This document shows, in pieces, positions 34,122-55,983 of a stretch of DNA of 64,000 nt. The stretch comes from Candidatus Cloacimonadales bacterium. Its GTDB lineage: Bacteria > Cloacimonadota > Cloacimonadia > Cloacimonadales > JAIOQZ01. The notes under the pieces were generated by a model that ran no database searches, was not told the origin of the DNA, and saw only the letters and a list, made by a program, of their open reading frames with translations. Both the position numbers and the translations under genes were made by a program. The DNA is taken from contig CALODV010000013.1 in the NCBI GenBank assembly GCA_942492065.1, positions 20,989 through 84,988 on the forward strand, in the 5' to 3' direction. The first letter of the stretch is position 1. Each line of letters opens with the position of its first letter.

Positions 34122-35184
34122 CTTTACTCCTTGCCTTAAAGTGAGGAGAATCACCAAGTTCCCCATAGCCTATTGTTTCACCAACAGATTCTATTCTGTT
34201 CTCCAGACATGCTCTGCACATGCTGGCATTTTCATCTACACATGGTTTATCATCATATAAGAGGTATTTTTCTCTGTATTTAGTATCTGTAAGAACAGGC
34301 ATGATAATATTTGCCCCGGCCTTTAATCCGTACTCTCTACCAAGCGGATCAAGTGCCTGCAATGCCGTTGTTGAGGCTATGTTAACATCCTTCAGGAAAA
34401 GACGAGTCAGGGAAATCATTTTGAGTGCTTTTCCCAGCTGAACTTTCTTGTCATAATCGGGCATGGAGTTTGCCATAGGAGTATCCTGATGCACAACATA
34501 AGGTCCCATTCCTATCATATCAATATCGTGCTCCTTGAAGAACATGATATCGTTCACCAGATCCTCGTAAGTCTGGTTCGGTAGCCCGATCATTACACCT
34601 GTTCCAACCTGATAACCTGTTTCACGCAGATATTCCAGGCATCTCAATCTCTCTGTATGATCGTGCGTTGCAGGATGAAGGCTTTTATACAGTTCCTCAT
34701 TGCTGGACTCAATTCTCAGCAGGTATCTTGTCGCACCTGCTTCGAACCATCTTCTGTAGGTTTCTTTTGATTGTTCACCCAGAGAAAGTGTGATTCCCAG
34801 CTCCTGATTAGAAAGCTTTTTGATGTTGATCAGCAGATCCTCTATGTAATCTACAAATTCTTTGTCACAGCGTTCTCCGGATTGTAGTACAACAGAACCG
34901 TATTTCATCTTCCAGGACCATTCTGCTGCTTCCAGAATCTCTTCCTTCTTCATGAAATATCTGTTTACTTTGCTGTTGCTCTTTCTGATCCCGCAATAAA
35001 AACAGTCTTTATCGCAGATGTTACTAAGCTCGATTATTCCTCTGAAATATACTTTATTGCCTACATTCTGCTCTTTTACAGCGTAAGCCTGCTTGTAGAG
35101 CTCTTCTATAAGAGCCTGATCTTCGGATTGAAAAACCTCGATCATTTGTTGTTTGGTAAGATTTTTAAAATCGTAATTCATCAT
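34105..35184 (-). CDS. hydE: [FeFe]-hydrogenase maturase HydE (radical SAM)
   Basis: CDKDCFYCG radical-SAM motif. Biotin-synthase-like length. Sits between aspA and hydF. Confidence 0.9.
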   Translation of the reverse strand: MMNYDFKNLTKQQMIEVFQSEDQALIEELYKQAYAVKEQNVGNKVYFRGIIELSNICDKDCFYCGIRKSNSKVNRYFMKKEEILEAAEWSWKMKYGSVVLQSGERCDKEFVDYIEDLLINIKKLSNQELGITLSLGEQSKETYRRWFEAGATRYLLRIESSNEELYKSLHPATHDHTERLRCLEYLRETGYQVGTGVMIGLPNQTYEDLVNDIMFFKEHDIDMIGMGPYVVHQDTPMANSMPDYDKKVQLGKALKMISLTRLFLKDVNIASTTALQALDPLGREYGLKAGANIIMPVLTDTKYREKYLLYDDKPCVDENASMCRACLENRIESVGETIGYGELGDSPHFKARSKDAGNS

Positions 35185-36619
35185 CCGTATATCCTAATTT
35201 GTACATTTTTGTAGGAGACAGAATCTCCTGGATTTTTTCTTCACTAATTATATTGTTTTCTATGAGATATTCACTTATTGACTGCCCCTTCTTCCCTGCT
35301 TCGATCACGATTTCTTCTACTTTATCGTAACCAAGAACCGGAACCAGCACAGTTGCAATTATTGGAGAATTAAACAGTTTCTGTCTGCATACATCCTTAT
35401 TGGCTGTTATGCCGTCTATACAATGAGTTCTGAACTTAATTGAAGCTGTGTTGAGCAGTTCCAGCGACTGCATGATGTTATGTGTAAGTAATGGCAGAAA
35501 CTGGTTCAGCTCAAGATTCCCCAGAGCTGTAACCTGAGTTATAACTGCATCATTTCCCATTACCTGTAAGGCTGATTGTGCGACAAACTCCGGAATCACA
35601 GGGTTTACTTTGGTTGGCATGATTGTTGATCCCTTCTGAACTTTGGGGAGGTTGATCTCCCCCAGTCCTCCCTGAGGTCCACTGCTCAGCAGTCGAAGAT
35701 CGTTAGCAATCTTGAACAGATTGGCAGCAAAAGCTTTGAGCATGCCTGAAACCTCTGCGAAAGCATCTACATTCTGGGTTGCATCAATCAGGTTTTCACC
35801 TCTGGCAAGATTCAGTCCCGTCAGCCTTCTCAGTACTTCAGTAACCTTGAAGATATACTTGCGTGGAGCACCAAGTCCTGTACCGATAGCGGTTCCTCCA
35901 AGATTAACAACCTTGATACGTTCTCTGGACTTGAATATACGCCATCTGTCACGAGCTATAGCATCGGAATATGCACTGAACTCCATCCCAAGGGTCAACG
36001 GTACAGCATCCTGAAGCTGTGTTCTGCCTGTCTTGACAACATTTTGAAACTCACGCTCCTTTTCCTGTAGTGACTCCTGCAAAAATGTTATGCTCTTTTC
36101 CAGCTCTTTAAGATACAGCAGTATAGCAACCTTGAGAGAAGTGGGATAAACATCATTCGTTGACTGATGCATATTCACATCTTTCAGAGGATGGATATAA
36201 CTGAAATCTCCTACAGCATGTCCGGCTTTCACATTAGCAAGATTCGCTATAACCTCGTTGAAATTCATGTTTGTTGAAGTACCGGCACCACCCTGGAAAG
36301 GTGACACAACAAACTCATCATGATGTTCACCTGCAATAATCTCCTTGCACACAGCTTCGATCAGGTCAGCTTTCTCCTGATCCATATAGCCAAGCAGACT
36401 GTTAGTTCTGGCACATGCCTGTTTCACATAAGCAAAAGCTTTTATGAACATGCCGTGCATCTTCTCAGGGGATTCCCCGAAATTATCCACAGCTCTGCAG
36501 GTTTGTGCCCCGTACATCACATTTGACGGTACTTCGCATTCATCTGTTATATTAGTTCTTATCTCTTTAGAAGTATAAGTCTCTTTCACCGTTTTTAATC
36601 CTCTGGATTCTTTTTTCAA
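35165..36619 (-). CDS. aspA: Aspartate ammonia-lyase (aspartase/fumarase class II family) embedded in the hyd maturase operon
   Basis: Signature GSTIMPTKVNP. N-terminus aligns to AspA (IRxxxDxxGxxEVPxxxxYG). Probably a TTG start. Confidence 0.85.
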   Translation of the reverse strand: MKKESRGLKTVKETYTSKEIRTNITDECEVPSNVMYGAQTCRAVDNFGESPEKMHGMFIKAFAYVKQACARTNSLLGYMDQEKADLIEAVCKEIIAGEHHDEFVVSPFQGGAGTSTNMNFNEVIANLANVKAGHAVGDFSYIHPLKDVNMHQSTNDVYPTSLKVAILLYLKELEKSITFLQESLQEKEREFQNVVKTGRTQLQDAVPLTLGMEFSAYSDAIARDRWRIFKSRERIKVVNLGGTAIGTGLGAPRKYIFKVTEVLRRLTGLNLARGENLIDATQNVDAFAEVSGMLKAFAANLFKIANDLRLLSSGPQGGLGEINLPKVQKGSTIMPTKVNPVIPEFVAQSALQVMGNDAVITQVTALGNLELNQFLPLLTHNIMQSLELLNTASIKFRTHCIDGITANKDVCRQKLFNSPIIATVLVPVLGYDKVEEIVIEAGKKGQSISEYLIENNIISEEKIQEILSPTKMYKLGYTDDELRF

Positions 36620-37973
36620 CTTCAGCTTTCATTTTGCTGTCATCAAGCTTTTCAAGTTCTCTTTCAATAAGTTTGATTCCTGAAGCTCTTGTCTCAGGAG
36701 TAGCATAGTCTTCCACATATTCGAGGAATGTAAGTATAGCATTTGGTGAGCAGTAACGTTTAACAAATCCGGGAATAGCAAATTCCATGAAGTGTTCACC
36801 GGTTCTGCCAAGTCTGTAGCAGCCTGTGCAGAAACTAGGAATAAAATTGTGATCTGCAAGCTCTTTGATAACTTCGTCCAGAGTTCTGGAGTCGGATAGT
36901 GTGAACTGCTCTTTCTTGCTTGTATGATCTTCTGAAGAATAATCACCTATACCAATTGCTGATCCTGCATCGATCTGGGATACGCCGTAATTGATAACTT
37001 CATTACGAATATCAATCGGTTCACGAGCAGTGAGAATCAGTCCGGTGTATGGTACCGCAAGTCGAAGAATAGCAACCAGTTTTTTGAAGTCATCATCAGA
37101 TACAAGGTGAGGAGGTCGTTTTGTGAAATCTGTATTGAAGGCAGGCTCTATCCGTGGGAATGAAATAGTATGAGGTCCAATGTTAAAGCGTTCTTCCAGA
37201 TGCATAGTGTGATAAAGCAATCCCATTACTTCAAAACGCCAGTCATACAAGCCCATGAGAGCTCCGATGCCGAGGTCATCGATTCCTGCTTCCATTGCTC
37301 TGTCCAGACCGTGAAGTCTCCACAGATAGTTACTCTTAGGTCCGCGAGGGTGAACTTGTTTATAGGTTTCTTCGTGGTATGTTTCCTGGAATATCTGGTA
37401 AGTTCCGATTCCTGCTTTCTTTACGATTTTGTAACCTTCTACATCAAGTGGAGCTGCGTTGATATTAACGCGACGGATTTCCCCGTTTCCTTTCTTAGTA
37501 GCATAGACTTTCATTACTGTGTCATGAATAAACTGTGCATCATATTTAGGGTGTTCTCCATATACCATAATCAGGCGTTTGTGACCGTTATCCACGAGTG
37601 ATTCTACTTCCATGCCGAGTTTCTGCATAGTGAGAGTATTTCTCTCCGCTTCGGTATTGGAAGATCGGAATCCGCAGTACACACAATCGTTAATGCAGTC
37701 GTTTCCAACGTAAAGAGGAGCAAAAAGCACGATTCTGTTACCGTATACTCTTTCTTTAAGAGTACGAGCTCCCTGTTTGATTTCTTCAACCAGATCTTCG
37801 TCTGTTGCGTTTATAAGACATGCCATTTCATAAGGATCAAGGCGGTTTTTATCCAGTGATTTCTGAATAATATCCTTAATTTGAGCTCTGTCAGGATTCT
37901 TTGTTTTAGTAAGATCCTCAAAGATTTTGTCATTCGGAATGAATGATTTGAGACCTGTTGTATCTAGTACCAT
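36567..37973 (-). CDS. hydG: [FeFe]-hydrogenase maturase HydG (radical SAM tyrosine lyase)
   Basis: CINDCVYCGF radical-SAM motif and a C-terminal CTGCYRLG…H auxiliary-cluster motif. ATG after AGAGG. Confidence 0.9.
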   Translation of the reverse strand: MVLDTTGLKSFIPNDKIFEDLTKTKNPDRAQIKDIIQKSLDKNRLDPYEMACLINATDEDLVEEIKQGARTLKERVYGNRIVLFAPLYVGNDCINDCVYCGFRSSNTEAERNTLTMQKLGMEVESLVDNGHKRLIMVYGEHPKYDAQFIHDTVMKVYATKKGNGEIRRVNINAAPLDVEGYKIVKKAGIGTYQIFQETYHEETYKQVHPRGPKSNYLWRLHGLDRAMEAGIDDLGIGALMGLYDWRFEVMGLLYHTMHLEERFNIGPHTISFPRIEPAFNTDFTKRPPHLVSDDDFKKLVAILRLAVPYTGLILTAREPIDIRNEVINYGVSQIDAGSAIGIGDYSSEDHTSKKEQFTLSDSRTLDEVIKELADHNFIPSFCTGCYRLGRTGEHFMEFAIPGFVKRYCSPNAILTFLEYVEDYATPETRASGIKLIERELEKLDDSKMKAEVEKRIQRIKNGERDLYF

Positions 37974-37989
37974 AATTACCTCTGTATTT

Positions 37990-38238
37990 TTAATCTGTTT
38001 TTAATGTTGTGGATTTGACTTTTACGGATTTGATCTGACCCAATTTTCCTGTCAGTGCTCCGAGTTCGTCAGTTGTCATTTCTGCAACTAGAAAAATAAT
38101 TGCAATATCACGGTCTTTCACCGGATACCCTACCCGCAGTAATAGTTCATCTGCGTAGTCATGTAAAATTGTATTAACCTGTTTATACGCTTCTTCGCGT
38201 TTATATACTGTTATAGAAACATTATGTATTCTTTTCAT
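37990..38238 (-). CDS. TM1266-like small ACT-fold protein (so-called iron-only hydrogenase system regulator family)
   Basis: 82 aa starting at the ATG at 38238 (MKRIHNVSITVYKREEAY…). Sits immediately upstream of hydG as in many hyd loci. The track start at 38268 is a GTG. Confidence 0.7.
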   Translation of the reverse strand: MKRIHNVSITVYKREEAYKQVNTILHDYADELLLRVGYPVKDRDIAIIFLVAEMTTDELGALTGKLGQIKSVKVKSTTLKTD

Positions 38239-38239
38239 G

Positions 38240-38275
38240 AAAAAAACCTCCGGTCCACACAGGGACACGGAGGTT
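38240..38275 (-). terminator. Strong intrinsic terminator hairpin whose 3' arm contains the GGAGG Shine-Dalgarno of the TM1266-like gene
   Basis: Minus strand reads ACCTCCGTGTCCctgtgtGGACCGGAGGT, then TTTTTTT, then C-ATG. Confidence 0.6.
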
Positions 38276-38437: not shown

Positions 38438-40231
38438 TTAGTGATGATCTTTACCTGTAACTTGCTCAACTACATGACCCTTGAATTTTTCTCTTGAGTA
38501 GTAGTGAGTGTGAAGCAGATGGTGAGCTTTATGTCCACCAGGACCTTCAGGAAGGAAGTTACCTTCGCCATAGAGTCCCATTACAGCTTCGTTATGGTGT
38601 GAGCATCTTGCAGGAAGATTTCTATCATCTTCATACAGTCTTTCACCACGGCGTGCACGGTCAGCCATTGAGTTACCGAATGGTTGTCCACCACCGCCAA
38701 CACATCCACCAGGGCAAGCCATGATTTCAATGAATGTATATTCGCTCTTACCTGTTTCTTTGATTTGCTTTTGAACTTTTTCCATGAGTTTTCTTGCATT
38801 TCCAAGTCCGTGAGCAACAGCAACTTTAACAGTAAGGTCTGGTGTGAGAGCAACTTCAGCTTCTTTGATACCTTTAAGACCACGAACAGGTGTTATTTCT
38901 ACATCACCAAGGTCTTTTTTATTTACAAGCCAGTATACTGAACGCAGTGCAGCTTCCATAACACCACCTGTAGCACCAAAAATAGTTCCGGCACCGGTGT
39001 GATGTGAAAGTTCATAATATGGTTCTTCTTCAGGAAGGTTTTTGAAATCCATACCTGCTTCGTGAATCATTCTGATTAATTCTCTGGTTGTAAGAACGTA
39101 ATCTACGTCTTGATATTTAGAATCAGACATTTCATCTCTTTGAGCTTCGAATTTTTTAGCTGTACAAGGCATGATTGATACAGATACTATATCTTTTGCA
39201 TCAATACTTTTTTGTTCAGCATAGTATGTTTTTGCAAGTGTACCCATCATTTGCTGAGGTGACTTTGCAGTTGATACATGGTGTGCAAGATCAGGGAAGA
39301 ATGTTTCCATGAACTTAACCCAACCAGGTGAACATGATGTTATACATGGTAACGGACCGCCATTAACAACACGATCAACAACTTCTGAACCTTCTTCGAT
39401 GATTGTAAGGTCAGCAGTAAAGTTTGTATCAAATACACCGTCGAAACCAAGTCTCTTAAGTGCTGCATACATTTTACCAATATTTACTTCACCAAATTCC
39501 ATTCCGAATTCTTCACCGAGTGAAGCGCGGATAGATGGAGCTTCCTGTACAACAACGTGTTTTGTAGGATCAAGAAGAGCATCCCATACTTTTGCTGTAT
39601 CGTCTTTTTCATGTAATGCGCCTGTTGGGCAGTATACTGTACACTGACCACAATTAACACATACAGAGTTAGCCATACCAAGACTTAAAGCTGTATCGAT
39701 TTTTGTTTCGAATCCACGGTTTGAGAATGTCAGTGCATTAACTGTCTGACCATCTGAACAAACCTGAACACAGCGTCCACAGTTGATACATTTATTAACG
39801 TCTCTAACTATAGAAACTGAAGAATAATCAACTGGAACTTTTTTAAGCATGCTTGGAACAGCTTCAGGATCGATATCTAATGTATACGCGATTTCCTGTA
39901 ATTCACATTTACCGTTCGCAACACATGTAGGACATGTAACATCGTGATTTGCAAGTATAAGTTCGATGAGAGTTTTTCTTGCTTCACGGAGTTTTTTGCT
40001 GTTTGTGGTTACTTTCATTCCTTCCCAAACTTCTGTTGAACAAGCTCTTTTTGGGACTGGAGAGCCTTCGATATCTACAATACAAACACCACATGCTGAA
40101 GTTGGTTTCCAGTCAGGGTGGTAGCATAATGTAGGAACGTTGTAACCTGCTTTCTTCGCAGCCTGGATTAACGTTGTACCTTGAGGTACTTCTACCTCAA
40201 TTTTGTTAATCGTAAGTTTAACATTACTCAT
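38438..40231 (-). CDS. hydA: [FeFe] hydrogenase catalytic subunit HydA (M3-type: 2Fe-2S, His-ligated 4Fe-4S, two ferredoxin-like 4Fe-4S, H-domain)
   Basis: The N-terminal 2Fe-2S Cys pattern, the His-ligated HDVTCPTCVANGKC, and two CxxCxxCxxxCP motifs precede the H-cluster motifs. L1 reads TSCSPGW, L2 reads MPCTAKKFE, and L3 reads EIMACPGGCVGGGGQP. Confidence 0.92.
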   Translation of the reverse strand: MSNVKLTINKIEVEVPQGTTLIQAAKKAGYNVPTLCYHPDWKPTSACGVCIVDIEGSPVPKRACSTEVWEGMKVTTNSKKLREARKTLIELILANHDVTCPTCVANGKCELQEIAYTLDIDPEAVPSMLKKVPVDYSSVSIVRDVNKCINCGRCVQVCSDGQTVNALTFSNRGFETKIDTALSLGMANSVCVNCGQCTVYCPTGALHEKDDTAKVWDALLDPTKHVVVQEAPSIRASLGEEFGMEFGEVNIGKMYAALKRLGFDGVFDTNFTADLTIIEEGSEVVDRVVNGGPLPCITSCSPGWVKFMETFFPDLAHHVSTAKSPQQMMGTLAKTYYAEQKSIDAKDIVSVSIMPCTAKKFEAQRDEMSDSKYQDVDYVLTTRELIRMIHEAGMDFKNLPEEEPYYELSHHTGAGTIFGATGGVMEAALRSVYWLVNKKDLGDVEITPVRGLKGIKEAEVALTPDLTVKVAVAHGLGNARKLMEKVQKQIKETGKSEYTFIEIMACPGGCVGGGGQPFGNSMADRARRGERLYEDDRNLPARCSHHNEAVMGLYGEGNFLPEGPGGHKAHHLLHTHYYSREKFKGHVVEQVTGKDHH

Positions 40232-40248: not shown

Positions 40249-41811
40249 CTATTTTTCAATTCTTGCTAAAAATTCATCCCGGAAGTTCTCAATAGCGCTT
40301 TTTACCGGCATGATTAATGATTGACCTAATGCACAGAAGGAAGACTGCTGCATTATCTCTGAAAGAGTAATCATGTAGTCTAAATCTTCAACTGTAGCTT
40401 CACCTTTCTGAACTTTCTTGATCAGTTTTTCGAGCTGTTTTGTACCAAGAGCACATGGACGGCATTTACCGCATGACTCATGCTCGAAGAAATGAATGAT
40501 AGATGCAAGCATTTCTACCATTGGAACATCTTCATTCATAACAAGAATAGCTCCGGAACCAAGAACAGCCGCGTTGTCACCAAGACTTTCATAGTCCATC
40601 TTAACGTTGACAAGATCTTCGTTAAGGATAACGCCTGCACTACCACCGATAAGAGCGGCTTTAAATTTCTTGCCGTCTTTCATTCCACCGCCGTACTCGT
40701 TGATGATTTTACGTAATGGTGTACCCATTTCTACTTCCGTAAGACCTGGCATTTCGACATCACCGAGTATGGTGTATACTTTTGTACCGGTTGATTTTTC
40801 GGTTCCGAGTTTAGCATACCACTCGCCGCCATTGTTAATGATCGCAGGAACATTAGCTATAGTTTCAACGTTGTTGACAACTGTAGGCTTTTGCCAAGCA
40901 CCTTTAACACCTGGGAAAGGTGGCTTGGAACGTGGGTTTCCACGATTTCCTTCCATAGATTCAATCAATGCAGTTTCTTCACCGCATACATAAGCACCTG
41001 CGCCAATCATCACTTCTATGTCAAGATTAAATCCTGAATCGAAGATATTTTCTCCAAGGAGACCATACTCACGAGCCTGCTCGATCGCTTTATTCAAACG
41101 GTTTATACATAATTTGTATTCACCGCGAATATATATGTAAGCTTTGGTTGCGCCAACAGCATATGATCCGATCATAATACCTTCGAGAAGTTTATGAGGA
41201 TCACCTTCCATAATAAGACGATCTTTGAAAGTTCCAGGTTCACCTTCGTCAGCATTGATAACAAATAATTTTTGTTCAGCTTCGATTGGTGCTGTGAAAC
41301 TCCATTTGAGTCCGGCAGGGAATCCTGCTCCACCACGTCCTCTCAGACCTGATTTCTTAACTTCGTCAATGATAGCCATTGGCTTCATGTTAAGAAGTGC
41401 TTTTTCCCATGCTATGTAACCGCCTGCTCCAAGATATTCTTCAATGTTTTCAGGATCGATAACACCTGAGTTTTTGAGAACGATTCTTGTGTCGTAGTTC
41501 ATGTCAATCTGAACTTTTTCAGGAGCTGTCATAAGCAGTCTTTTTACAGGACGGCCTTTTACAAAGTGCTCGTTAACAAGTTCTGCAGCATCTTCTACTT
41601 TGAGGTTAATATATGTAACGTTGTCAGGATAAACAACACAGTTCACGCCTTTATCAAAGAAATTAAGTGAACCGGTTTCAAGTACTTCTACTTCTTCCTG
41701 AAGACCGTTTTTTTCTATTTCAGCTTTGATTGCAGCTTGAACAGCACTTGTTCCTGCAGCAATACTAGCATCGTCCATACCGAATAAAATGTGAGTGCGT
41801 GTAGTTTTCAT
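40249..41811 (-). CDS. hydB: NuoF-like flavoprotein subunit HydB (FMN/NADH-binding)
   Basis: GRGGAGFPAGLKW FMN site and ESCGKCRPCALG 4Fe-4S motif. The N-terminal ~110 aa have a thioredoxin-like fold without Cys. Confidence 0.9.
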   Translation of the reverse strand: MKTTRTHILFGMDDASIAAGTSAVQAAIKAEIEKNGLQEEVEVLETGSLNFFDKGVNCVVYPDNVTYINLKVEDAAELVNEHFVKGRPVKRLLMTAPEKVQIDMNYDTRIVLKNSGVIDPENIEEYLGAGGYIAWEKALLNMKPMAIIDEVKKSGLRGRGGAGFPAGLKWSFTAPIEAEQKLFVINADEGEPGTFKDRLIMEGDPHKLLEGIMIGSYAVGATKAYIYIRGEYKLCINRLNKAIEQAREYGLLGENIFDSGFNLDIEVMIGAGAYVCGEETALIESMEGNRGNPRSKPPFPGVKGAWQKPTVVNNVETIANVPAIINNGGEWYAKLGTEKSTGTKVYTILGDVEMPGLTEVEMGTPLRKIINEYGGGMKDGKKFKAALIGGSAGVILNEDLVNVKMDYESLGDNAAVLGSGAILVMNEDVPMVEMLASIIHFFEHESCGKCRPCALGTKQLEKLIKKVQKGEATVEDLDYMITLSEIMQQSSFCALGQSLIMPVKSAIENFRDEFLARIEK

Positions 41812-42266
41812 TATTCGCCTCCTCTGATTTCATCGATGATCTTTTTAACTCTGTCAGGAGTAAGGTCACCGTAAACATCTTCGTTCACCATCATTACAGG
41901 AGCGTTACCGCAAACACCGAGGCATGCGCAGAGTTCAAGAGTAAATTCACCGTCTTGAGTTGTTTCGCCTGTTTTTACTCCAAGATAATCTTTGAGTGTT
42001 TTGTGAACAGCGTCTGAACCTTTAAGCCAGCATGGAGGAGATTCACACAAACGGATAATGTTCTTTCCTCTTGGTTTTGTTGAGTACATTGTGTAGAATG
42101 TAAGAACACCGAAAATGTGACTTTCCGGTACATTGAGATAGTTAGATACAGCAGCAACAGCTTCTTCAGAGATATAATGCTGAGGATGCTGATCCTGAAT
42201 ATCATGCAGGATGTAAATCAGATTAGATTTTACAGCTTCGTACTTTTCGAAAATCTTATCGTACAT
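41811..42266 (-). CDS. hydC: NuoE-like [2Fe-2S] subunit HydC
   Basis: Four Cys in CESPPCW…CACLGVCGNAP. TAATG coupling with hydB. Confidence 0.88.
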   Translation of the reverse strand: MYDKIFEKYEAVKSNLIYILHDIQDQHPQHYISEEAVAAVSNYLNVPESHIFGVLTFYTMYSTKPRGKNIIRLCESPPCWLKGSDAVHKTLKDYLGVKTGETTQDGEFTLELCACLGVCGNAPVMMVNEDVYGDLTPDRVKKIIDEIRGGE

Positions 42267-42300
42267 AATTTCTCCTTATATTATTTTTTTGAGTTCTTTC

Positions 42301-42663
42301 TTATTCTGCTGCAGCAACGTATTCTGCTACAACTTCTCCACCGATGATGTGTTTTTCCATTACTTCGGCAACTTTTTCAGGATTCATGTATCCGTATGTA
42401 ACTTGAGGCATGTCTTTTACGTATACATCTACTACAGGTTCCATTGAGGAAATTCCTTTTTCTCCTGTTTGTGTTACAACAACATCAGTAAGCCCTTTTG
42501 CCTGGATTGCTTCCAGGAATGCTTTCATTACCTGACGGGCACCCATTGCGATTCCGGATGTTCCCATGGAAACAACAATCTTTACACGGTGATCAGCATT
42601 TCTTAAAGCCATGTTTTGCTGAGCTTTTTCTCTGATCTTACGTAATTCTTCGAGTTTTTTCAT
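42301..42663 (-). CDS. Small thioredoxin-like (NuoE/HndB-fold) protein lacking all cluster-ligating cysteines
   Basis: 120 aa with the pattern KIVVSMGTSG…VVVTQTGEKGISSMEPVVDVYV…Y…PE, which matches the Trx-like 2Fe-2S ferredoxin fold with Cys replaced. GGAGG Shine-Dalgarno. Confidence 0.55.
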   Translation of the reverse strand: MKKLEELRKIREKAQQNMALRNADHRVKIVVSMGTSGIAMGARQVMKAFLEAIQAKGLTDVVVTQTGEKGISSMEPVVDVYVKDMPQVTYGYMNPEKVAEVMEKHIIGGEVVAEYVAAAE

Positions 42664-42697
42664 CCAATTCCTCCAAATAATTTTGGTTTAGTTTTTT

Positions 42698-43342
42698 TTA
42701 TTTGTATTCTATCAAATTTCTTTTGTTATGGTGGTAGGTTACCACTGCCATGTTGCAGTACAGACAAGTCTGCTCCACAAACACATATTCAGGCACTTTA
42801 ATGCGGACGGTAGTAAAGTTCCACAAAGTAGTAATCTTGTTATCGACAAGCATATCCGCCGCATTCTGTGCTTCTGAAGCAGGGGTTGCAATGATTCCAA
42901 CCTGAATATCAAATTCATCACGGATTTTTTCGAGGTCTTCATTTGAATAGACTTTGAGTCCTTTTACATGTGTTCCGAATTTTGCAGGATCGTTATCTGT
43001 TAGAGCTTTAATACTTAAGCCTGTAACATTCATATCGTGATAACGCAGCAGCGCTCTGGCGAGGTTTCCTGCCCCAACCACGATTGTATTGAGGGAATGA
43101 TCCCAGCCTAAGAATTCTTCGATTAAAATGATTGACTCGTCAACTTTGTGACCGACTCTTGGTTTCCCTGTGAGTCCTGCGATAGTAAGGTCTTTTCTGA
43201 CCTGAGTAGGATATATTTTTAAATTGCGTGCTATTTCTGAAGCCGAAGTAAATTCCACATCGGCTGCTTTGAGTTCTTTTAAAAATTCAAGGTATAACGG
43301 TAAACGACGTATAGTATACAATGAAACAGAATCATTCATCAT
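42698..43342 (-). CDS. rex: Redox-sensing transcriptional repressor Rex
   Basis: N-terminal winged helix (YTIRRLPLYLEFL) and a Rossmann GxGxxG region (VVGAGNLARAL). ATG at 43342 after GGAAGGA. The track start at 43360 is a TTG. Confidence 0.85.
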   Translation of the reverse strand: MMNDSVSLYTIRRLPLYLEFLKELKAADVEFTSASEIARNLKIYPTQVRKDLTIAGLTGKPRVGHKVDESIILIEEFLGWDHSLNTIVVGAGNLARALLRYHDMNVTGLSIKALTDNDPAKFGTHVKGLKVYSNEDLEKIRDEFDIQVGIIATPASEAQNAADMLVDNKITTLWNFTTVRIKVPEYVFVEQTCLYCNMAVVTYHHNKRNLIEYK

Positions 43343-43699
43343 TAATTCAGTTCCTTCCAATTCAATATTTTTATATCAATATTTTTGGGTCGATTTTAAA
43401 GTCAAGCTAAATATTAGTTTTTTTACACCTTTTTTCGGGGTATAAATCAATGGCTATTATAAAGTGTGTTATGGCTGTATTTTGGCTTGAGATAAGGGCT
43501 GAATGTTAGCCAAGGGTAACTTGGGGGAAAGGTATTTCAGAAGGAGGATTTAGCGATTAACAGTTAAGTTTTCACTACTAGGATTCAAAAAGGATTGACA
43601 GACTTATCTTTGATCTTAGCATTGTCCTATAATTCATTATAGGAGTGACCATTATGATTCGTGAGCTTACAGAAAAAATGAAAAAGGAAAGATATATCC

Positions 43700-43947
43700 C
43701 GCCACCGAGTTTGGCGAAAACAGTCACTAAATTGGCGAAAACGCACTTTTCAGCCCAAAATGACCGTTTGAAATGAACATCTGACCTTCACGAGTTTGGC
43801 GAAAATCAAAACCACCCGAAAAAACTTGCACGAGTTTGGCAGTAAATTCAACAAAAAATGCCAATCTTGTGCAAGTCGAACAGTCACAAGATTGGCAAAA
43901 ATTCAGAGTTATGAACCTATAAACGATCACTAATTTGGCGAAAAATC
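43700..43947 (+). repeat. Array of six direct, imperfect ~19-bp repeats (core TTCAC-N-AG/AA-TTTGGC(G/A)AAAA) at the prophage/host junction
   Basis: Copies at about 43703, 43725, 43787, 43828, 43883 and 43926, all in the same orientation. Spacing is irregular (22 to 62 bp). Confidence 0.7.
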
Positions 43948-44694
43948 CCAGTTACCTATCAGCAATTCCTTATAAATTAGATCACCGGTACGCACAATTC
44001 CCTTCTGTCTGGAGAGTGGAATCATAGGAAATTCAGCGAATAACTCCCGGGCTTCCGGGCAGTCATCAAGTGAAAGCAGCCATTTACCTTTGATCGTCCT
44101 CAGACAATCCCGAAACGCCTTATGATCAAACTCTCTGGCATTATCATATCTGGCACCGGTAACATAAGGCGGATCAAAGTAAAAGAAGGCTGAAGGGCTG
44201 TCATAGTACTTAATCAAGTCTTTATAGTCCTTACCCTCGATCTGTACATGGTCAAGCCTTTTAGACAGCGCTCGTATCGCATCCAGCTTGTTTCTCAGAC
44301 TCTTCTGAGCTCCTTCTCTTCTTGCACCAAACGAGTCCCCCTGAGCTCCAAAACTGAAGGTAATCACATAGAAAAAACGAGCAGCCTTTTGCAGCTCAGT
44401 AAGCCCTTCCCATTGCATCATCTTGCCGAACATGATCCTGCCGGCAGGTAGTTTCTCAAGTTCGATTATAAGGGCTTCAGGATGATACTTCACCTGAAGA
44501 AACAGGTTAGTCAACCGCTCATCCAGATCATTATAAACCTCGGTTTTAGCCCATCTGTCTTTATACAGTAAAAGCCAGCCGGCACCACCGAACGGCTCTA
44601 TGTACTTTCCAATGTTATCAGGCACAAATTGTGCAATAGTTTTACGTAGTAGACGCTTGCTTCCCATCCATGGAATAATTGAATTTGTAGGCAT
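43930..44694 (-). CDS. dam: Orphan DNA adenine methyltransferase (Dam, D12 class)
   Basis: Motifs PWMGSKR, EPFGGAGW and catalytic DPPY. ATG at 44694 overlaps the upstream ORF stop (TAATG). The track start at 44730 is a GTG. Confidence 0.85.
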   Translation of the reverse strand: MPTNSIIPWMGSKRLLRKTIAQFVPDNIGKYIEPFGGAGWLLLYKDRWAKTEVYNDLDERLTNLFLQVKYHPEALIIELEKLPAGRIMFGKMMQWEGLTELQKAARFFYVITFSFGAQGDSFGARREGAQKSLRNKLDAIRALSKRLDHVQIEGKDYKDLIKYYDSPSAFFYFDPPYVTGARYDNAREFDHKAFRDCLRTIKGKWLLSLDDCPEARELFAEFPMIPLSRQKGIVRTGDLIYKELLIGNWDFSPN

Positions 44695-44894
44695 TAAATT
44701 GTTGCTCCTGAAGTAGAAAAAGCGTCGCACCCTCGACCAAGAACACTCCTATTCAAGTGCTTGGGCATAAACCCAAAGATGCGACGCAATATATCAGTTT
44801 TAATTGATTTATCGGTCGCTTGAATAGGTCTCAGCTCTTGGTCGAAGCTAATAACAAGGTTTGATTTTGAAATTAAATTGTCAACTGTAATCAT
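44694..44894 (-). CDS. Small hypothetical phage protein between the endolysin and dam
   Basis: 66-aa ORF translationally coupled at both ends. Confidence 0.4.
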   Translation of the reverse strand: MITVDNLISKSNLVISFDQELRPIQATDKSIKTDILRRIFGFMPKHLNRSVLGRGCDAFSTSGATI

Positions 44895-44900
44895 ACTAAA

Positions 44901-45488
44901 TTACACTCTCTTCAACCAGCCACGCACATATTTCCTCTGACTCGGTTTCATACTCGCTATAACTATATAATGATATCCCTGCATAATACGCATCATCTCA
45001 TTCAAATATGCAATATCACCGCATTTAATGCAGGTCTGCACTCGTTTATAAGTCTGCCTGCCGGCAATCCCATCCTTAATAAGATCTTCACCATACTCCC
45101 GACTGCCGTCCTTCATTTTCCTGTTTAAAAGATTAAGGCAGATCTGCAAGAATTCAGCAGCAGTCTCCTGACCGCAATTCACATTAATATCAAACATCCG
45201 ATGTGCCAATTCTTCATCCGTTATATTGTCATAACCCGGTTTCTCCCAGTACTTGAGCCTGAACAGAGCTTTTGCAGCCTGTCGTAAAGCCGGATCGTTG
45301 TTCAATACTTCAACATATTTATTTGGAAAAGTCTCCTTAATTTCATCAACGTATTTCCACCATTCCCAGTCTCCGTTAAACATTCTGGCAATACCAAAAA
45401 CAGTCTCACCGCCTGCATCATCCGGATCACATGAATAACCGGCTTCAATCAAAGCTAATTTAGGGTACATCTTATCAAAATAGTCCAT
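44901..45488 (-). CDS. Endolysin, glycoside hydrolase family 108 lysozyme-like with a peptidoglycan-binding C-terminus
   Basis: N-terminal MDYFDKMYPKLALIEAGYS…DDAGGETVFGI matches the GH108 N-terminus. ATG at 45488 after AAGGAG. Confidence 0.75.
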   Translation of the reverse strand: MDYFDKMYPKLALIEAGYSCDPDDAGGETVFGIARMFNGDWEWWKYVDEIKETFPNKYVEVLNNDPALRQAAKALFRLKYWEKPGYDNITDEELAHRMFDINVNCGQETAAEFLQICLNLLNRKMKDGSREYGEDLIKDGIAGRQTYKRVQTCIKCGDIAYLNEMMRIMQGYHYIVIASMKPSQRKYVRGWLKRV

Positions 45489-45502
45489 TCTAACTCCTTT
45501 GC

Positions 45503-46150
45503 TTATATAAATGTAAAGCCAGATCCACCCACAACCATCCATGCATGGTCGCTGTTGGATACAAGCATTACGCAATCTCCAAGACTATCAAATTCTATCG
45601 TTCCTTCGTTTCCTTCGCCTCCCGGATATATAACACATTTATCTGCACTATTAGCTGTTAGCGTTGCTTTATTACCAGTCTTCAGTTTGGTGTATGTTGC
45701 AATAACGAATTTACCTGCTTTTCCTGCAATTGCCGGTAATACTACAGCAACATCCTTATCATTGGTATCAGTATCAAATTCAAGGACTTGCAGATCAGAA
45801 TCAGTTAGAACAACCGTTGATATCGAATTGATAACCGTCTTGGCTGTCATACCGTCGCATTGCATAAATCTCCCGGGATTAAGCCCAAGCCAGCCGGTAT
45901 GTAGAAATCCACCTGTAGGATTATCTTTACTGACCACTATGCCATTATTACCCTGACTCAGCGAATAACCATCTAATGTATCGGCATCGATACCGGCAGC
46001 AGTTAATTCAGCTATTACCTTATTTACAATCGTCTCTATCAGAACCGTTCTGACTCTATCATCTGAAGAGCTGTCTGCTCCTTTATCTACAATCAGTACA
46101 TCCTTATCATCAGGATTACTATCTAATGGATATGTATTAGGTCGTGGCAT
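45503..46150 (-). CDS. Phage tail fibre or receptor-binding-like protein
   Basis: 215 aa, Gly/Thr/Asn-rich and beta-rich. Lies last in the tail module before lysis. GGAGG Shine-Dalgarno. Confidence 0.4.
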   Translation of the reverse strand: MPRPNTYPLDSNPDDKDVLIVDKGADSSSDDRVRTVLIETIVNKVIAELTAAGIDADTLDGYSLSQGNNGIVVSKDNPTGGFLHTGWLGLNPGRFMQCDGMTAKTVINSISTVVLTDSDLQVLEFDTDTNDKDVAVVLPAIAGKAGKFVIATYTKLKTGNKATLTANSADKCVIYPGGEGNEGTIEFDSLGDCVMLVSNSDHAWMVVGGSGFTFI

Positions 46151-46703
46151 GTGTTTCTCCTCCTGAATTAACGGTTACTGAAGGGTTAGGATTCTCATAT
46201 CCAAGCACATCAGCACCATTCTCATCTATTATATGGTTACCGGTTTCATCTATAACAAAACTGAAGTTATCCGGTAGTGTTAAAATTGTATTTAGCTCAT
46301 AGTAGCCAACTGATTCCAAAGTCATTTTATAAGCATCAATTTGCAGTGAATCTTTATAATGATAAGGCGTAAATTCAGTAACAAAGCACCATACTTTCTG
46401 ATATGAATCTGTCTCAGGTATCACATAAACACAGCTTCCAACAGGGCAATTGTTTTGAAGATCTGTCAGTTGCGTATTGAATACCAGTGAACTGCTGGGG
46501 TCATCCACCACAACCAGTTCAAATTTTGCATAATGCCCTTTTGTAATAAGTGTTCTCCTGCCTGTTAATACCGACTTATGCATTATCTGATCAGGCACCT
46601 GTAAATTGCTTTTAAACTGGCAAATCGCTTCCAGATTATTGAAATCAATGTTGATATCACTATTGTATATTCTTGGTAATTTAGAACCTAATATAACGCC
46701 CAT
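46137..46703 (-). CDS. Phage tail protein (hypothetical)
   Basis: Position between the Dit-like and fibre-like genes. TAATG coupling. Confidence 0.4.
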   Translation of the reverse strand: MGVILGSKLPRIYNSDINIDFNNLEAICQFKSNLQVPDQIMHKSVLTGRRTLITKGHYAKFELVVVDDPSSSLVFNTQLTDLQNNCPVGSCVYVIPETDSYQKVWCFVTEFTPYHYKDSLQIDAYKMTLESVGYYELNTILTLPDNFSFVIDETGNHIIDENGADVLGYENPNPSVTVNSGGETHATT

Positions 46704-47794
46704 TATACCGCCCTCTCATATGTCATAGTACAGTTCCTAACATCAAATTTGAGCGAGTAACAGAAACAGGTATAATCGTATTCAGATAGAAGAGTTGTAA
46801 CCTCTTTTGTATCGGCTAAACCTTGAAAATATGCCAGAAATACCTGTGCAATCTGCTCCTGCAAATCATTTATCCTGTGGATCCTGTAACTGGTCGGTGC
46901 ACTCAAGTAATACAGCTCCAGATTATCAATTATAGAAAGACTCCTGTTTGCCGTATCTGTTGGAGAATCAGTGCGGTAATCAGCTTCAGAAACATCTTCA
47001 TCAATCCATGTAAGATCAAACAGTTTACTCAGCTCAACATTACTTTGAGATACGCTGAAACTGCTGATAGTAGTCTGTTTCTTATCACCAATCTTAAATA
47101 TCAGATCTGCATCAGTAAAATATCGATAATGCACCGGTAGCAGGTAGTATTTGTTGTCATGAAATACAAGCTGAACCTGTAACAATTGCAGCAAACCAAC
47201 CACCACATCATATAGATTGCTAAATGTTCTGTCCTCATTATCTGTACATCCGTAAAATTCAATCTGCTTCAACTGCAAACCAATATTGCGATATCTCATT
47301 ATTGAATTATTGTAATTGTAAGGACTTGCCAGATCTCCAACCGAATCAATTACATCCACATTCAAACACTGCTTCATAACTGATTTAATAAAGTGAATAA
47401 CCGACACATAGCTCTCATCCCAGTATTCATAAGTATATCCAAAAGCCTTATAATCAGCCATTGTATTGTTTATGTCTGTAAACCAGAATCGGCGTACATC
47501 CTGTACACTGTAATCAGATAACTTTGACAGATAGTTAACCGCTTTTATATTATATAAATACTTGTCATAATCATACTCAACACTCTCAATTATCAGACGA
47601 AAAATAGAAGTCCCGTTTAGCTTGATAATCAGGATATCTCCCGGAACAGGTACAACTCCACAGATACTGATACTTGTAGTAGTATTAACCATTGAATAAT
47701 CATAGTTAACTCGTCTCGATAACCCATTAATTTTTATCACAGTATCGGAGATGTCAGCATTGTTCAGATACACCCTAATCATACTGATCTCCAC
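46703..47794 (-). CDS. Phage distal tail or baseplate-like protein (hypothetical)
   Basis: 363 aa immediately downstream of the tape measure gene. Confidence 0.4.
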   Translation of the reverse strand: MEISMIRVYLNNADISDTVIKINGLSRRVNYDYSMVNTTTSISICGVVPVPGDILIIKLNGTSIFRLIIESVEYDYDKYLYNIKAVNYLSKLSDYSVQDVRRFWFTDINNTMADYKAFGYTYEYWDESYVSVIHFIKSVMKQCLNVDVIDSVGDLASPYNYNNSIMRYRNIGLQLKQIEFYGCTDNEDRTFSNLYDVVVGLLQLLQVQLVFHDNKYYLLPVHYRYFTDADLIFKIGDKKQTTISSFSVSQSNVELSKLFDLTWIDEDVSEADYRTDSPTDTANRSLSIIDNLELYYLSAPTSYRIHRINDLQEQIAQVFLAYFQGLADTKEVTTLLSEYDYTCFCYSLKFDVRNCTMTYERAV

Positions 47795-50744
47795 CTCTAT
47801 CCATGCGATTCATGACTTGCCTGTCTTTACGGATTCGCACTTCCGGATCCGAAGTCTCAACCACGATAACCGGCTGCTGCTGACTAACCAGATTCATGTT
47901 AATTACTTCTAATTGCTGCTTTATCTCTGCTAATTCATTACTTCCGGTATTAACCACTCCACCGTTCGCATAAGCCAGTTTCGGTATTGGAATAGAAACA
48001 GCCTGTCTAATATCAAATCCGGTGAATGCCTCTCTTACCTTAGAAAGAGGTGCAAAATTGATAAAGTCCAGTAGTGGTTGAAAAGTCCTTGTCTTTTCTT
48101 CATTCACAATGTATTCACCGTTTGAAATTTTAATAACATTAGCATCATCTCTGCCCCCGCCAACACCACGGAAAAGTCCTCCGTCAGCGAACTCCTGAGC
48201 CTCTATCTGTGCCACATTAGCCAGTCCGGCAGCAATTGCCGCCGCAGCTGCTGCAACACCCAGTCCGGGACCCACTACAGGGATTCCTGCCATAGCTTTA
48301 TAAGCCGCAGTTGCAGCCGCATATGTATCAACTATCGCTTGAGCCTCAGCCGATCTCTTCCAGAATGTAAAACCCTCTTTCCCGAATTGCTTCATGTTTT
48401 CACCCATCTCCATCAAGGTGTTCCATGCAAGCTTGACTTCGGCTATCTTCTTAGCTTTATCAATCTTCGCCAGCTCTTTGTTTTGCTGTTTAATAATCTC
48501 TTTTTCGCTCAACCCATAAGCAAGAAGCATGTCCTTTTTCTCAGTGTAAAATTCGTTTATCTTTACTCTTTCCCTCTCATACATGTCTTCAATGCTTGCA
48601 ATCTTCCTGTCATTGAACTCCTCAAACGCTGCTAACTGCTCAGCCTGATTCTGCTTTTCCTCAGCCTTCCTTTCAGCCTTAATCCTTTTCTCTTCTGCTT
48701 CTTTAACTTTCTGTTGAGAATCCTTTTCATCCTGAATTGCTTTCTCAATTTCATATACTTCTTTAATTGCCTTAATATGCTCTTCCGAATTCTCTTTTGT
48801 CAGTTCTCCAAGGCTCTCATAATGCTTTTTAGCCTTCTCAAGTTCGTTTTCTAATAATTGTAATTTCGAGAGAGTTTTTGTTTTATCAAGCTCTTTCACA
48901 AGCTCGTTAAATTCTTTCTGAGCCTGTATATCTTCTTCTTTAGCTTTTTGCTTTAATAACTCTTCTTTGATATAGTATTCGTTAAGCTTATCAAGATCTT
49001 CCTGAGATAAAAATGTCAGAACCTTGGTCGATCTGTCAGCATTGTATTTTGCAAGAATCTCATCAATAAGCCTTGATACTTCCTTCATCTCTTCTCGAGC
49101 ACTCGAAGCACTGATTTTATCGGTGTACTTTGCATACTCTCTTGTCAGCTCATTCAACTTCTCTTGGTTCACAACCAGATCTTCAATACCCTTATTTGTC
49201 TCATATATGAACTCGATAAACTCACCTTGATTCTCAATCATTCTTTCTGTTTTTTCATTGTATTCTAATAATTCATGAATCACAGTTGTAATCCCAATAC
49301 CCAAAGCAGTTAGCCCAATAATCACCTGTGCAACCGGGTTTGCCAGCATAGCCGCATTAGCCGATATTACAGCCCATTTTAGCTGTATAATCTTTGCAGT
49401 AACCACACCAACAGTAACACCAAGTCCAATGAGTACATCATTGTTCTCAGCTAGAAACTGGATGAATTTAGTCGTATTTTCTGTGATAGTTTTCAATATT
49501 GGCAGAAAATTATCCATTAAGGTGATGTTCAATGCTTCCTGAGCAGATTGAAACTCAAGGATCTTCCCCTGAAGAGTATCCATTTGAGTTTTAGCCATCC
49601 TTTCCGCAGCTCCACCGGCATCATCAAGACTTGTCTTCAGGTCATTAAGGCTATAGGAAGCGTTTACCAGTGTTAAAAAGGAAGCAGCAGATCGCTTATC
49701 AAGATACTCTGTAGCATCTGCCAGATCAAAGTTACTGTCTTTCAGCTCTTGCAGTTTATCTACTACTTGTTCAAATGTCTTAACATTCTCACCCATCAAC
49801 TCAGAAACTCCGGAACTCTCATCTTGTAATTCCATCATGATGTTCTTCAAACCCATTCCGGCAATAGAACCATTAAGACCGGCATCAGCAAGCTTGCCAA
49901 GCATAGCTGTAGTTTCTTCTAATGAGAATCCGGCAGCACTCGCAATCGGAGCTAATGTCTTCATTGATTCCTTGAACTTAAACAAGTCCAGTGCAGATTT
50001 GGAAAAACTCAGAGCCATTACATCCGATACTCTATTCATCTCACTTGCTTCTAAGCGAAACCCTCTCAACGTTGCACCGGCAACCGCAGTTGATCCCTGA
50101 AGATCTTCATTAACAGCAGCTGAAAGCTTCACAATTCCATCAGTAGCATTCAGGATCTCTGTCGTACTGAAGCCAAGCTTAACTAACTCAACCTGTAGAT
50201 TAGCCACTTCAGTAGCAGTGAATTTAGTAGATGCTCCAAGGCTTTTAGAAACATCAGAGAGCTTCTCCATTTCTTGCTCGGTAGCACCGGATAAAGCTAA
50301 GATGTTCTTATTTGCCTGCTCGTAATCCATTGCTGGATTAGCAACCTTTTCAGCCTTATTCTGCACCTGATCAATCAATGTCATAAGACCCTGATAAGCC
50401 ATAGCCAGATGAGCAATGTTCTCCAACGCTGCACCAACATCTACATTGATGCTGCTTTCTTTATTATCCGGGACTTCTTCAATAGCTTTGCCGGCTCCTT
50501 CAGCAGTCTGCTCAGCTTCAGATCCATCTACATTAATACTGGCTTCGGCATCAGGAATACTGTCCATCTTACTGGTAACATCATCAACAGCTTTTTTAGC
50601 AGAGCTTGCATCAAGATTAACAGACATCTCAGCGGGAGTTTCAGCCGCTTTTATCACATCCTGAACACCTTTCTTTACCTCATTGACTTTCTTGTCAGCA
50701 TTACCGCCAAAGATCAGTTTAATGTAATATTCAAGCGTTGCCAT
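47775..50744 (-). CDS. Tail tape measure protein
   Basis: 989 aa. Extensive coiled-coil and low-complexity A/E/K segments. Gly-rich hydrophobic stretches (GLGVTVGVV, GPGLGVAAAAAAIAAGL). AGGAG Shine-Dalgarno. Confidence 0.8.
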   Translation of the reverse strand: MATLEYYIKLIFGGNADKKVNEVKKGVQDVIKAAETPAEMSVNLDASSAKKAVDDVTSKMDSIPDAEASINVDGSEAEQTAEGAGKAIEEVPDNKESSINVDVGAALENIAHLAMAYQGLMTLIDQVQNKAEKVANPAMDYEQANKNILALSGATEQEMEKLSDVSKSLGASTKFTATEVANLQVELVKLGFSTTEILNATDGIVKLSAAVNEDLQGSTAVAGATLRGFRLEASEMNRVSDVMALSFSKSALDLFKFKESMKTLAPIASAAGFSLEETTAMLGKLADAGLNGSIAGMGLKNIMMELQDESSGVSELMGENVKTFEQVVDKLQELKDSNFDLADATEYLDKRSAASFLTLVNASYSLNDLKTSLDDAGGAAERMAKTQMDTLQGKILEFQSAQEALNITLMDNFLPILKTITENTTKFIQFLAENNDVLIGLGVTVGVVTAKIIQLKWAVISANAAMLANPVAQVIIGLTALGIGITTVIHELLEYNEKTERMIENQGEFIEFIYETNKGIEDLVVNQEKLNELTREYAKYTDKISASSAREEMKEVSRLIDEILAKYNADRSTKVLTFLSQEDLDKLNEYYIKEELLKQKAKEEDIQAQKEFNELVKELDKTKTLSKLQLLENELEKAKKHYESLGELTKENSEEHIKAIKEVYEIEKAIQDEKDSQQKVKEAEEKRIKAERKAEEKQNQAEQLAAFEEFNDRKIASIEDMYERERVKINEFYTEKKDMLLAYGLSEKEIIKQQNKELAKIDKAKKIAEVKLAWNTLMEMGENMKQFGKEGFTFWKRSAEAQAIVDTYAAATAAYKAMAGIPVVGPGLGVAAAAAAIAAGLANVAQIEAQEFADGGLFRGVGGGRDDANVIKISNGEYIVNEEKTRTFQPLLDFINFAPLSKVREAFTGFDIRQAVSIPIPKLAYANGGVVNTGSNELAEIKQQLEVINMNLVSQQQPVIVVETSDPEVRIRKDRQVMNRMDRGGDQYD

Positions 50745-50858
50745 TGTGTTTTTCTCCTAAAGCCAAGTACATTCTTAACAGGTTCTTAATGCTCATTTTA
50801 GAACGTAAACTCGTGTAATCTGTTGAAGTGTGAACAGCCATAAATGCAACTAAATCCT

Positions 50859-51203: not shown

Positions 51204-51274
51204 TCGTGCTCCTTTAAATATTGTGTAGGAAAGAAACCGCCCGAATTAACGAGCGGTAACAGGAGGGTATTATG

Positions 51275-53069: not shown

Positions 53070-53077
53070 CTTACTGC

Positions 53078-53557: not shown

Positions 53558-53565
53558 CTGTCCTC

Positions 53566-53970: not shown

Positions 53971-53979
53971 AAATACCTC

Positions 53980-55874: not shown

Positions 55875-55983
55875 ATCAGCTCCTTTAACTTTCGGAGGCA
55901 TTATACCATAGTAATCATATTCCAATTTAAAAAGTGGTGCTCACCACCACAAAAAAAAGCAAATAAGGTATTCGTGTGTACAA

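Follow-up and report, generated by a model that had tools for sequence, protein, structure and literature searches.

Results

The stretch of DNA analysed here, a window of 64,000 nucleotides from contig CALODV010000013.1 of a Candidatus Cloacimonadales bacterium, carries on its minus strand a rex-adjacent operon, D-hydC-hydB-hydA, that probably encodes a hydrogenase of the [FeFe] type linked to NADH (reduced nicotinamide adenine dinucleotide), most likely a non-bifurcating one. Two modules of the predicted enzyme, the small protein D and the N-terminal domain of HydB, have the fold of thioredoxin-like [2Fe-2S] ferredoxins and no cysteine at the ligand positions, and both would be structural parts without a redox role. 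All coordinates are positions in the 64-kb window.

Two thioredoxin-like modules without cluster ligands

A preliminary description of this DNA had recognised in D and in the N-terminal segment of HydB the thioredoxin-like [2Fe-2S] ferredoxin fold without its ligands, and had proposed profile hidden Markov model searches and structure prediction as checks. NCBIfam, PDB, Foldseek and AlphaFold2 (AF2) agree on this fold. The Pfam scan, however, returned nothing relevant for D or the HydB N-terminal domain, NCBIfam and PDB sequence searches being used instead, and both modules scored below the cutoff of the clostridial NCBIfam model NF041612 ('2Fe-2S ferredoxin'), with E-values of 6.5e-10 for D and 2.3e-9 for the HydB domain. 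The same description had every ligating cysteine replaced in the two modules and four cysteines retained in HydC, and both statements were borne out by the positions given below.

D (42301-42663, minus strand) is encoded by the first gene of the structural operon and was assigned by fold and homology to the HndB/HydD-type small subunits. There is no cysteine in its 120 amino acids. Residues 2-22 form an N-terminal helix, and a thioredoxin-like ferredoxin fold comes after it. In the PDB sequence search, D matched Aquifex Fd4 and, in solved BfuB/HydB chains, the N-terminal [2Fe-2S] domains, with E-values of 2e-10 to 2e-9. In the same way, Foldseek placed its AlphaFold model (predicted local distance difference test score, pLDDT, of 84) closest to Aquifex Fd4 (1m2a) at 1e-7, in addition to BfuB N-terminal domains. 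The former ligand positions are S32, S36, E68 and S72, the second being corrected here to S36 of the GTSG motif, and not G37.

The N-terminal domain of HydB (residues 1-95; 41527-41811, minus strand) was delimited by alignment to 7t2r_B, 7q4v_B and 9n5u_B, by NF041612 and by its AF2 topology, which is beta-alpha-beta-beta-beta-alpha. In a full-length match of E 8e-161, residues 4-95 have the N-terminal domain of A. mobile HydB as their counterpart, and these residues also align with the N-terminal domains of the Acetobacterium woodii and T. sibiricus B subunits. The four ligand cysteines are replaced by G11, S16, S48 and F52. A homolog search with the N-terminal 144 amino acids of HydB alone retrieved 9 fragments only, and a full-length search together with a locus survey was used instead. 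The two modules match each other directly (phmmer E ~3e-4). As they have no cysteine at the ligand positions, D and the HydB N-terminal domain are, judged from their sequences, fold homologs of the thioredoxin-like [2Fe-2S] ferredoxin and not functional ferredoxins.

The ligand cysteines are absent from all of the 120 nearest homologs of D, and 118 of these have no cysteine at all. The loops GMGTSGIAMGAR and TQTGEKGxSSMEP are invariant among the nearest homologs. With such loops and with 58-74% identity across the phylum, D was rejected as a pseudogene or decaying relic. A family profile search gathered 2751 representatives, whose alignment shares LEELRKIRE..GMGTxGIAAGAR..QTGxxGxxxxEP; among the best 150 of these, 96 have three cysteines, 50 have none and 5 have a partial set. 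JGI annotates homologs of D as 'NADP-reducing hydrogenase subunit HndB', and the operon context with NuoE-like, NuoF-like and HydA genes recurs in related loci.

The cysteine-free loops might bind another ligand, such as a cation at S36, E68 and S72, a nucleotide or another small molecule, which would make the modules neofunctionalised. The former cluster loops of D (residues 31-43 and 63-78) are indeed its most conserved parts, with 96% conservation against 78% for the whole protein, E68-K69 became invariant within the Cloacimonadota clade, and a related three-Cys domain is known to bind Zn instead of [2Fe-2S] (PMC12018979). Nevertheless, the replacement residues differ widely, both among cysteine-free D lineages (S/T/V/P/A; E/S/N/D/G; S/A/D/E/F) and among the N-terminal domains of the HydB type described below as T/K (STST, GSPF, GAPF and others), and a conserved new ligand site is therefore disfavoured. 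The same loops are also conserved in the cysteine-containing relatives, so that their conservation can reflect fold or interface, and we regard a new ligand as highly improbable.

Most cysteine-containing HndB-like proteins keep three of the four canonical cysteines, in the pattern G/H/A-M-G-T-C-G ... T-G-C-x-G-x-C (representatives P0251-P0398). The N-terminal domain of T. sibiricus NfnB (9n5u_B) presents the same three-Cys pattern, and its structure shows Zn, not [2Fe-2S] (PMC12018979). From this common pattern, many 'ferredoxin-domain' HndB proteins may be non-redox.

Cofactor inventory and flavin-site signature of HydB

HydB (40249-41811, minus strand) is a NuoF-like protein of 520 amino acids. 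Its core (40249-41526), identified from Pfam and NCBIfam matches and from alignments, comprises the site for flavin mononucleotide (FMN) and NAD, an SLBB domain and the B1 [4Fe-4S] cluster. The closest solved relatives, in sequence and in fold, are the bifurcating HydABC/Bfu enzymes of T. maritima, T. kivui, A. woodii, A. mobile and T. sibiricus (NfnABC), with E-values of 1e-161 to 1e-134, which have in common with it the architecture of N-terminal domain and core and the FMN-B1-C1 centre. These enzymes own in addition the B3/B4 [4Fe-4S] clusters, a B2 site with Zn or Fe-S, a B5 Cys site and an A/M-F-GGPSG signature, none of which is found in the window HydB. The latter stops at residue 520, the equivalent of residue ~527 among the 597 of A. 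mobile HydB and of residue 528 among the 599 of A. woodii, and the C-terminal B3/B4 2x[4Fe-4S] ferredoxin domain is therefore absent; no CxxCxxCxxxC motif follows B1 in HydB. At the B2 site, a hinge site of three Cys and one His, P430 and R517 align with C437 and H524 of T. sibiricus, and the two remaining ligands (C529 and C534 in T. sibiricus) would lie beyond the end of the protein. The B5 site, whose ligands are cysteines of the N-terminal domain, is also missing. The only cluster ligands left in HydB are C447, C450, C453 and C493 of B1.

The residues around the FMN/NAD site are T194 and K196 (GEPGTFKDR), Y274 (GAGAYVCGEE) and GGSAG (389-393). According to Losey 2020, non-bifurcating enzymes have T/S at position 232 and K/S/A at position 234 of TmHydB, Y at the FMN site and no GGPSG, while bifurcating enzymes carry A/M, F and GGPSG at the same positions (PMC7311640). 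HydB presents the full non-bifurcating signature, referred to here as the T/K type, and the fewer Fe-S cluster domains that Losey 2020 expects in the beta subunit are seen in it as B1 alone. The preliminary description had set the loss of the [2Fe-2S] sites against Thermotoga-type HydABC, but had missed the more decisive contrasts with Thermotoga-type HydB: the absent C-terminal domain, the absent B2 ligands and the non-bifurcating signature.

The 'flavobicluster' core of FMN, B1 and C1 is complete in HydB and HydC, and it is not diagnostic, since it is common to non-bifurcating relatives. HydC (41811-42266, minus strand; 151 amino acids) is NuoE-like, with a Pfam 2Fe-2S_thioredx match at 3e-53 and an NCBIfam nuoE_fam match above cutoff. 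Its [2Fe-2S] site is intact, with C74, C79, C115 and C119 at the positions that the C1 ligands have in T. sibiricus NfnC (PMC12018979). HydA (38438-40231, minus strand; 597 amino acids), the catalytic [FeFe] hydrogenase subunit, was assigned from NCBIfam, Pfam domains and its cysteine inventory. It scored 799.5 bits against NF040763 ('NADH-dependent [FeFe] hydrogenase, group A6'; cutoff 765). Besides the H-cluster domain, it carries a [2Fe-2S] at the N-terminus, a His-ligated [4Fe-4S] and 2x[4Fe-4S]. From the cysteine inventory, the complex is predicted to contain about 26 Fe per protomer, to which HydB clusters of the bifurcating type would add about 10.

The weight of the several losses in HydB can be judged from the solved enzymes. 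In T. kivui, ferredoxin docks on HydB's C-terminal domain, and removal of the N-terminal domain or the C-terminus strongly lowers bifurcation, while dye-linked hydrogenase activity remains (PMC10021017). T. sibiricus NfnB holds Zn in its three-Cys N-terminal domain instead of [2Fe-2S], and the enzyme still bifurcates (PMC12018979). For this reason, the loss of the N-terminal [2Fe-2S] was rejected as proof, by itself, of lost bifurcation, and the cysteine-free modules are a weaker argument here than the signature residues and the missing C-terminal domain. The same Zn-containing enzyme speaks against the shorter electron path that the preliminary description had drawn from the lost [2Fe-2S] sites. 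As these sites lie off the path from H2 to NAD in bifurcating enzymes, losing them does not shorten it, and the alternative that it had offered, purely structural relic domains, is the better one.

We propose that electrons would pass from NADH to FMN and then to the B1 [4Fe-4S] cluster in HydB, and through the Fe-S chain of HydA to the H-cluster and H2, in a reversible manner and independently of ferredoxin. The [2Fe-2S] cluster of HydC would neighbour the flavin, in the manner of N1a in complex I, and neither D nor the HydB N-terminal domain would hold a cofactor or transfer electrons. By analogy with solved relatives, the latter would be a relic with a structural role, lying against HydC and against the core of HydB; in A. 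mobile the corresponding domain 'stabilizes the CTD of HydC' (PMC8880783). D would be an accessory subunit of the HndB/HydD type, whose former cluster loops may have been preserved by strong purifying selection to serve as a surface for contacts between proteins.

Distribution of the two HydB types

A locus search seeded by a 16-sequence alignment was run on 80 species-representative genomes of several phyla, and 116 HydB-like open reading frames were classified. The N-terminal domain has the four cysteines (CCCC) in 67/67 of the HydB proteins with the bifurcating A/M signature and is cysteine-free in 45 of the 48 with the T/K signature. The two types are cleanly separated in a distance tree, and the core of the window HydB shares 55-78% identity with T/K types of other phyla, versus 48-53% with A/M types. 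The module made up of a T/K-type HydB with cluster-less N-terminal domain and a cysteine-free HndB-like protein is spread over Cloacimonadota, Syntrophorhabdaceae and other Desulfobacterota, Bipolaricaulota, Caldisericota, WOR-3, Thermotogae and Bacillota, and in many genomes it stands next to a bifurcating-type NuoE-B1 module ahead of one HydA. Additionally, the 120 nearest HydB homologs are 510-529 amino acids long (most 519-521), and all have Y at the FMN site, GGAAG or GGSAG, and at most two cysteines in the first 100 residues. The T/K motif was matched in 114 of them, the search pattern being without match in the other 6.

One member of this group had already been singled out. The HydB of Ca. 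Cloacimonas acidaminovorans (520 amino acids; T, K, Y, GGAAG), of the same length and architecture as the window HydB, was predicted to be non-bifurcating in Losey 2020 Table S2, and is the only 'tetrameric' enzyme predicted so there (PMC7311640). This 520-residue type takes up a single line of that table. The other beta subunits predicted to be non-bifurcating are 402-434 amino acids long, and for that reason without the N-terminal domain.

Cysteine-free members of the D family are not restricted to such enzymes. In unrelated taxa (L004, L005) they also neighbour B subunits of the bifurcating type with a full set of clusters, and the loss of cysteines in D is therefore not tied to the loss of bifurcation; a cysteine-free D was rejected as a marker of non-bifurcating enzymes for the same reason.

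Comparison with characterised enzymes

FdsB, from the NAD+-dependent formate dehydrogenases of R. capsulatus (6TG9) and C. necator (6VW7), has the same cluster-less N-terminal domain in a solved non-bifurcating enzyme (PMC7171172). It belongs to an NAD(H)-linked enzyme and likewise lacks the C-terminal ferredoxin domain; it aligns with the window HydB over residues 5-514, with a Foldseek TM of 0.77 and an identity of ~37%. It differs in its partner, a molybdenum formate dehydrogenase and not an [FeFe] hydrogenase, and in having no HndB-like extra subunit. The non-bifurcating hydrogenases described by Losey 2020, which produce H2 from NADH only and whose producers are syntrophs (PMC7311640), resemble the window enzyme in the T/K, Y and non-GGPSG signature and in the absence of extra HydB clusters. 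They differ in that their beta subunit of 402-434 amino acids has no N-terminal thioredoxin-like domain, or is fused to HydC, and in having no D.

D itself is likened here to HndB of the Solidesulfovibrio fructosivorans Hnd enzyme and HydD of Acetobacterium woodii HydABCD from their literature descriptions. All are proteins of ~120-125 amino acids encoded in an operon beside NuoE-/NuoF-like genes, with an N-terminal helix and a thioredoxin-like fold in common. HndB is described as without redox centre (PMC10084766), and HydD was 'predicted to contain no cofactor' (PMC6288185). In contrast to the window HydB, which is T/K-type without extra clusters, the HydB/HndC of these two enzymes is A/M-type with all clusters, and the enzymes bifurcate.

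Instead of a subunit, D could be a regulatory or assembly factor that binds transiently, for example together with the sensory hydrogenase, kinase and phosphatase genes of longer clusters. In such clusters D follows an HATPase_c gene and lies near HydS-like sensory hydrogenase, DRTGG and PHP genes. The cryo-electron microscopy paper on A. woodii describes HydABC without mention of HydD, a regulatory role was suggested for BfuD (PMC11406978), and an A. mobile operon gene named hydD, linked to D by name only, is outside the purified holoenzyme (PMC8880783). In the literature, however, HydD counts as a subunit of the A. woodii enzyme and HndB as one of the S. fructosivorans enzyme (PMC6288185, PMC10084766), the window D heads the structural operon, and the sensory genes are absent from the window. 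We consider a regulator or assembly factor rather unlikely, and an accessory subunit remains our preferred assignment of D.

Operon neighbourhood

The gene order on the minus strand, from open reading frames with Pfam and NCBIfam matches, is rex, D, HydC, HydB and HydA, followed by an H-cluster maturation block that spans 32922-38268. The order rex-D-C-B-A is repeated on three other contigs, and a metagenomic contig of 3.96 Mb (ERZ21831104:ctg97515c) encodes an identical 120-residue D. Judged by how its closest homologs are named, the organism belongs to Candidatus Cloacimonadota. The rex gene (42698-43360, minus strand), immediately upstream of the operon, encodes a repressor of the redox-sensing type (Pfam Put_DNA-bind_N and CoA_binding). 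Downstream, and on the same strand, a TM1266-like 'iron-only hydrogenase system regulator' (37990-38268) stands between hydA and hydG (36567-37973). HydG, HydE (34105-35184) and HydF (32922-34166) form the maturation block together with this regulator gene and a gene of the aspartate ammonia-lyase/fumarase family (Lyase_1 and FumaraseC_C; 35165-36619), which lies between hydG and hydE and overlaps both.

Directly upstream of rex, a prophage-like block occupies 43523-56000. Among its genes are those of a D12-class adenine methyltransferase (43930-44730), of a GH108 endolysin (44901-45575) and of a tape-measure protein (47775-50744). The similarity to an almost identical contig (L001; 96.9% over 4.2 kb) breaks off at window position 43523, where that contig carries DUF3800 and DUF559 genes in place of the block, so that the rex-side flank of the operon is strain-variable. 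Within this variable region, between the methyltransferase gene and rex, the 15-nt motif CGAGTTTGGCGAAAA and its variants occur in six non-coding copies at 43706-43944 with an irregular spacing of 21-64 nt. These putative binding sites may belong to a phage or mobile element.

Clusters with two flavoprotein modules

Most sister Cloacimonadota have a longer cluster, NuoE1-HATPase_c-D-B1-NuoE2-B2-HydA, where B1 and B2 denote two B subunits (L007, L009, L010, L012, L014, L015, L022, L023, L025, L026, L029, L035 (~4900-12200 each), L044-L059, L071-L075). Subunit B1 has 612-622 amino acids, the bifurcating signature (A/M, F), a CCCC N-terminal domain and two Fer4 motifs, and subunit B2 has 519-520 amino acids, the T/K signature and a cysteine-free N-terminal domain. 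Two flavoprotein modules of opposite type and one D thus precede a single HydA. Syntrophorhabdaceae, other Desulfobacterota and some Firmicutes metagenome-assembled genomes (MAGs) have the order D-C-B(T/K)-A-C-B(A/M), and one MAG holds a short window-like operon (L043) plus a separate C-D'-B1 module (L068). The short D-C-B2-A form is found in several genomes. On another MAG contig (L006, 4968-12378), the order NuoE-HATPase-D-B-NuoE-B-HydA, with a cysteine-free D, is followed by a formate-dehydrogenase-like gene; its B subunits of 552 (F, GGIPG, no Fer4 motif) and 544 amino acids (T/K) are both without the C-terminal ferredoxin domain. Our literature search on clusters with two NuoEF modules found no pertinent description.

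These clusters raise the question of whether the T/K-type HydB-HydC and D of the window still belong to a bifurcating system, in which another part of the genome would encode a NuoE-B1 module of the bifurcating type and both modules would serve one HydA, as alternative assemblies or in one larger complex. The single HydA and single D of the sister clusters, the D-C-B(T/K)-A-C-B(A/M) order in Syntrophorhabdaceae and other taxa, and the MAG with both a short operon and a separate module all speak for such an arrangement. On the other side, there is no further NuoE or NuoF gene within the 64-kb window, the short form exists in several genomes, the binding of two modules to one HydA is hypothetical, and the window HydB itself has no ferredoxin site. 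We judge a bifurcating system of this kind to be quite unlikely, somewhat more so than a regulatory D, and keep the NADH-linked, non-bifurcating enzyme as the better reading of the window operon.

The two-module clusters are of more interest than the domain-level finding and are the lead most worth following. It is conceivable, although we think it rather doubtful, that the T/K HydB with its cluster-less N-terminal domain and the cysteine-free HndB-like protein represent an uncharacterised and widespread class of [FeFe] hydrogenase module, that D is an adaptor for switching or bridging NADH-only and NADH-plus-ferredoxin modules on one HydA, and that the window is the NADH-only end state. If so, syntrophs could choose among H2 thresholds.

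Discussion

Several points weigh against a non-bifurcating enzyme composed as proposed here. The subtype is known from sequence alone, and the criteria of Losey 2020 are based on correlation. A different architecture is seen in S. wolfei Hyd1ABC and S. aciditrophicus HydAB, the characterised non-bifurcating enzymes, whose NuoF part lacks the N-terminal domain and which have no D. A bifurcating-type NuoE-D-B1 module stands in the same cluster in most sister Cloacimonadota, and the window's genome may have such a module at another place, which could serve this HydA. In published reconstructions of Cloacimonadota, the enzyme figures as an Hnd/A3 hydrogenase that bifurcates (PMC8542988, PMC12590816). 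The place of D as a stoichiometric subunit is presumptive. Finally, since window-wide matches to the Firmicutes consensus of the Rex operator (TTGTGAAN6TTCACAA) were at chance level, with none near the operon (42664-43700), regulation by Rex is suggested by gene adjacency alone; any control of the operon by Rex in this phylum would have to use a site that departs from the Firmicutes one.

The cysteine-less form is not peculiar to this genome. The preliminary description had itself named, as evidence against its proposal, homologs in which this form is the norm for a known functional subunit type, and such homologs exist: it is the norm in HndB/HydD (PMC10084766, PMC6288185) and in the N-terminal domains of the T/K HydB proteins of our survey, and FdsB is a solved example (PMC7171172). 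The cysteine-free modules are the normal state of a widespread, probably non-bifurcating type of NADH-linked hydrogenase already flagged in the literature. With such subunit types known to lack these cysteines as a rule, and with the Cloacimonas ortholog singled out earlier, the finding, though real, is largely ordinary, and its novelty at the domain level is small, cluster-less thioredoxin-like modules being documented in FdsB and HndB/HydD.

The main value of the analysis is corrective, as a caution against modelling the 'Hnd/A3' hydrogenases of Cloacimonadota as bifurcating (PMC8542988, PMC12590816). The label group A3, or 'tetrameric', does not by itself imply bifurcation. A hydrogenase that uses NADH only operates only at very low H2 partial pressure. 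An NADH-only enzyme would therefore bear on the obligate syntrophy of these abundant digester bacteria and on the modelling of their redox balance.

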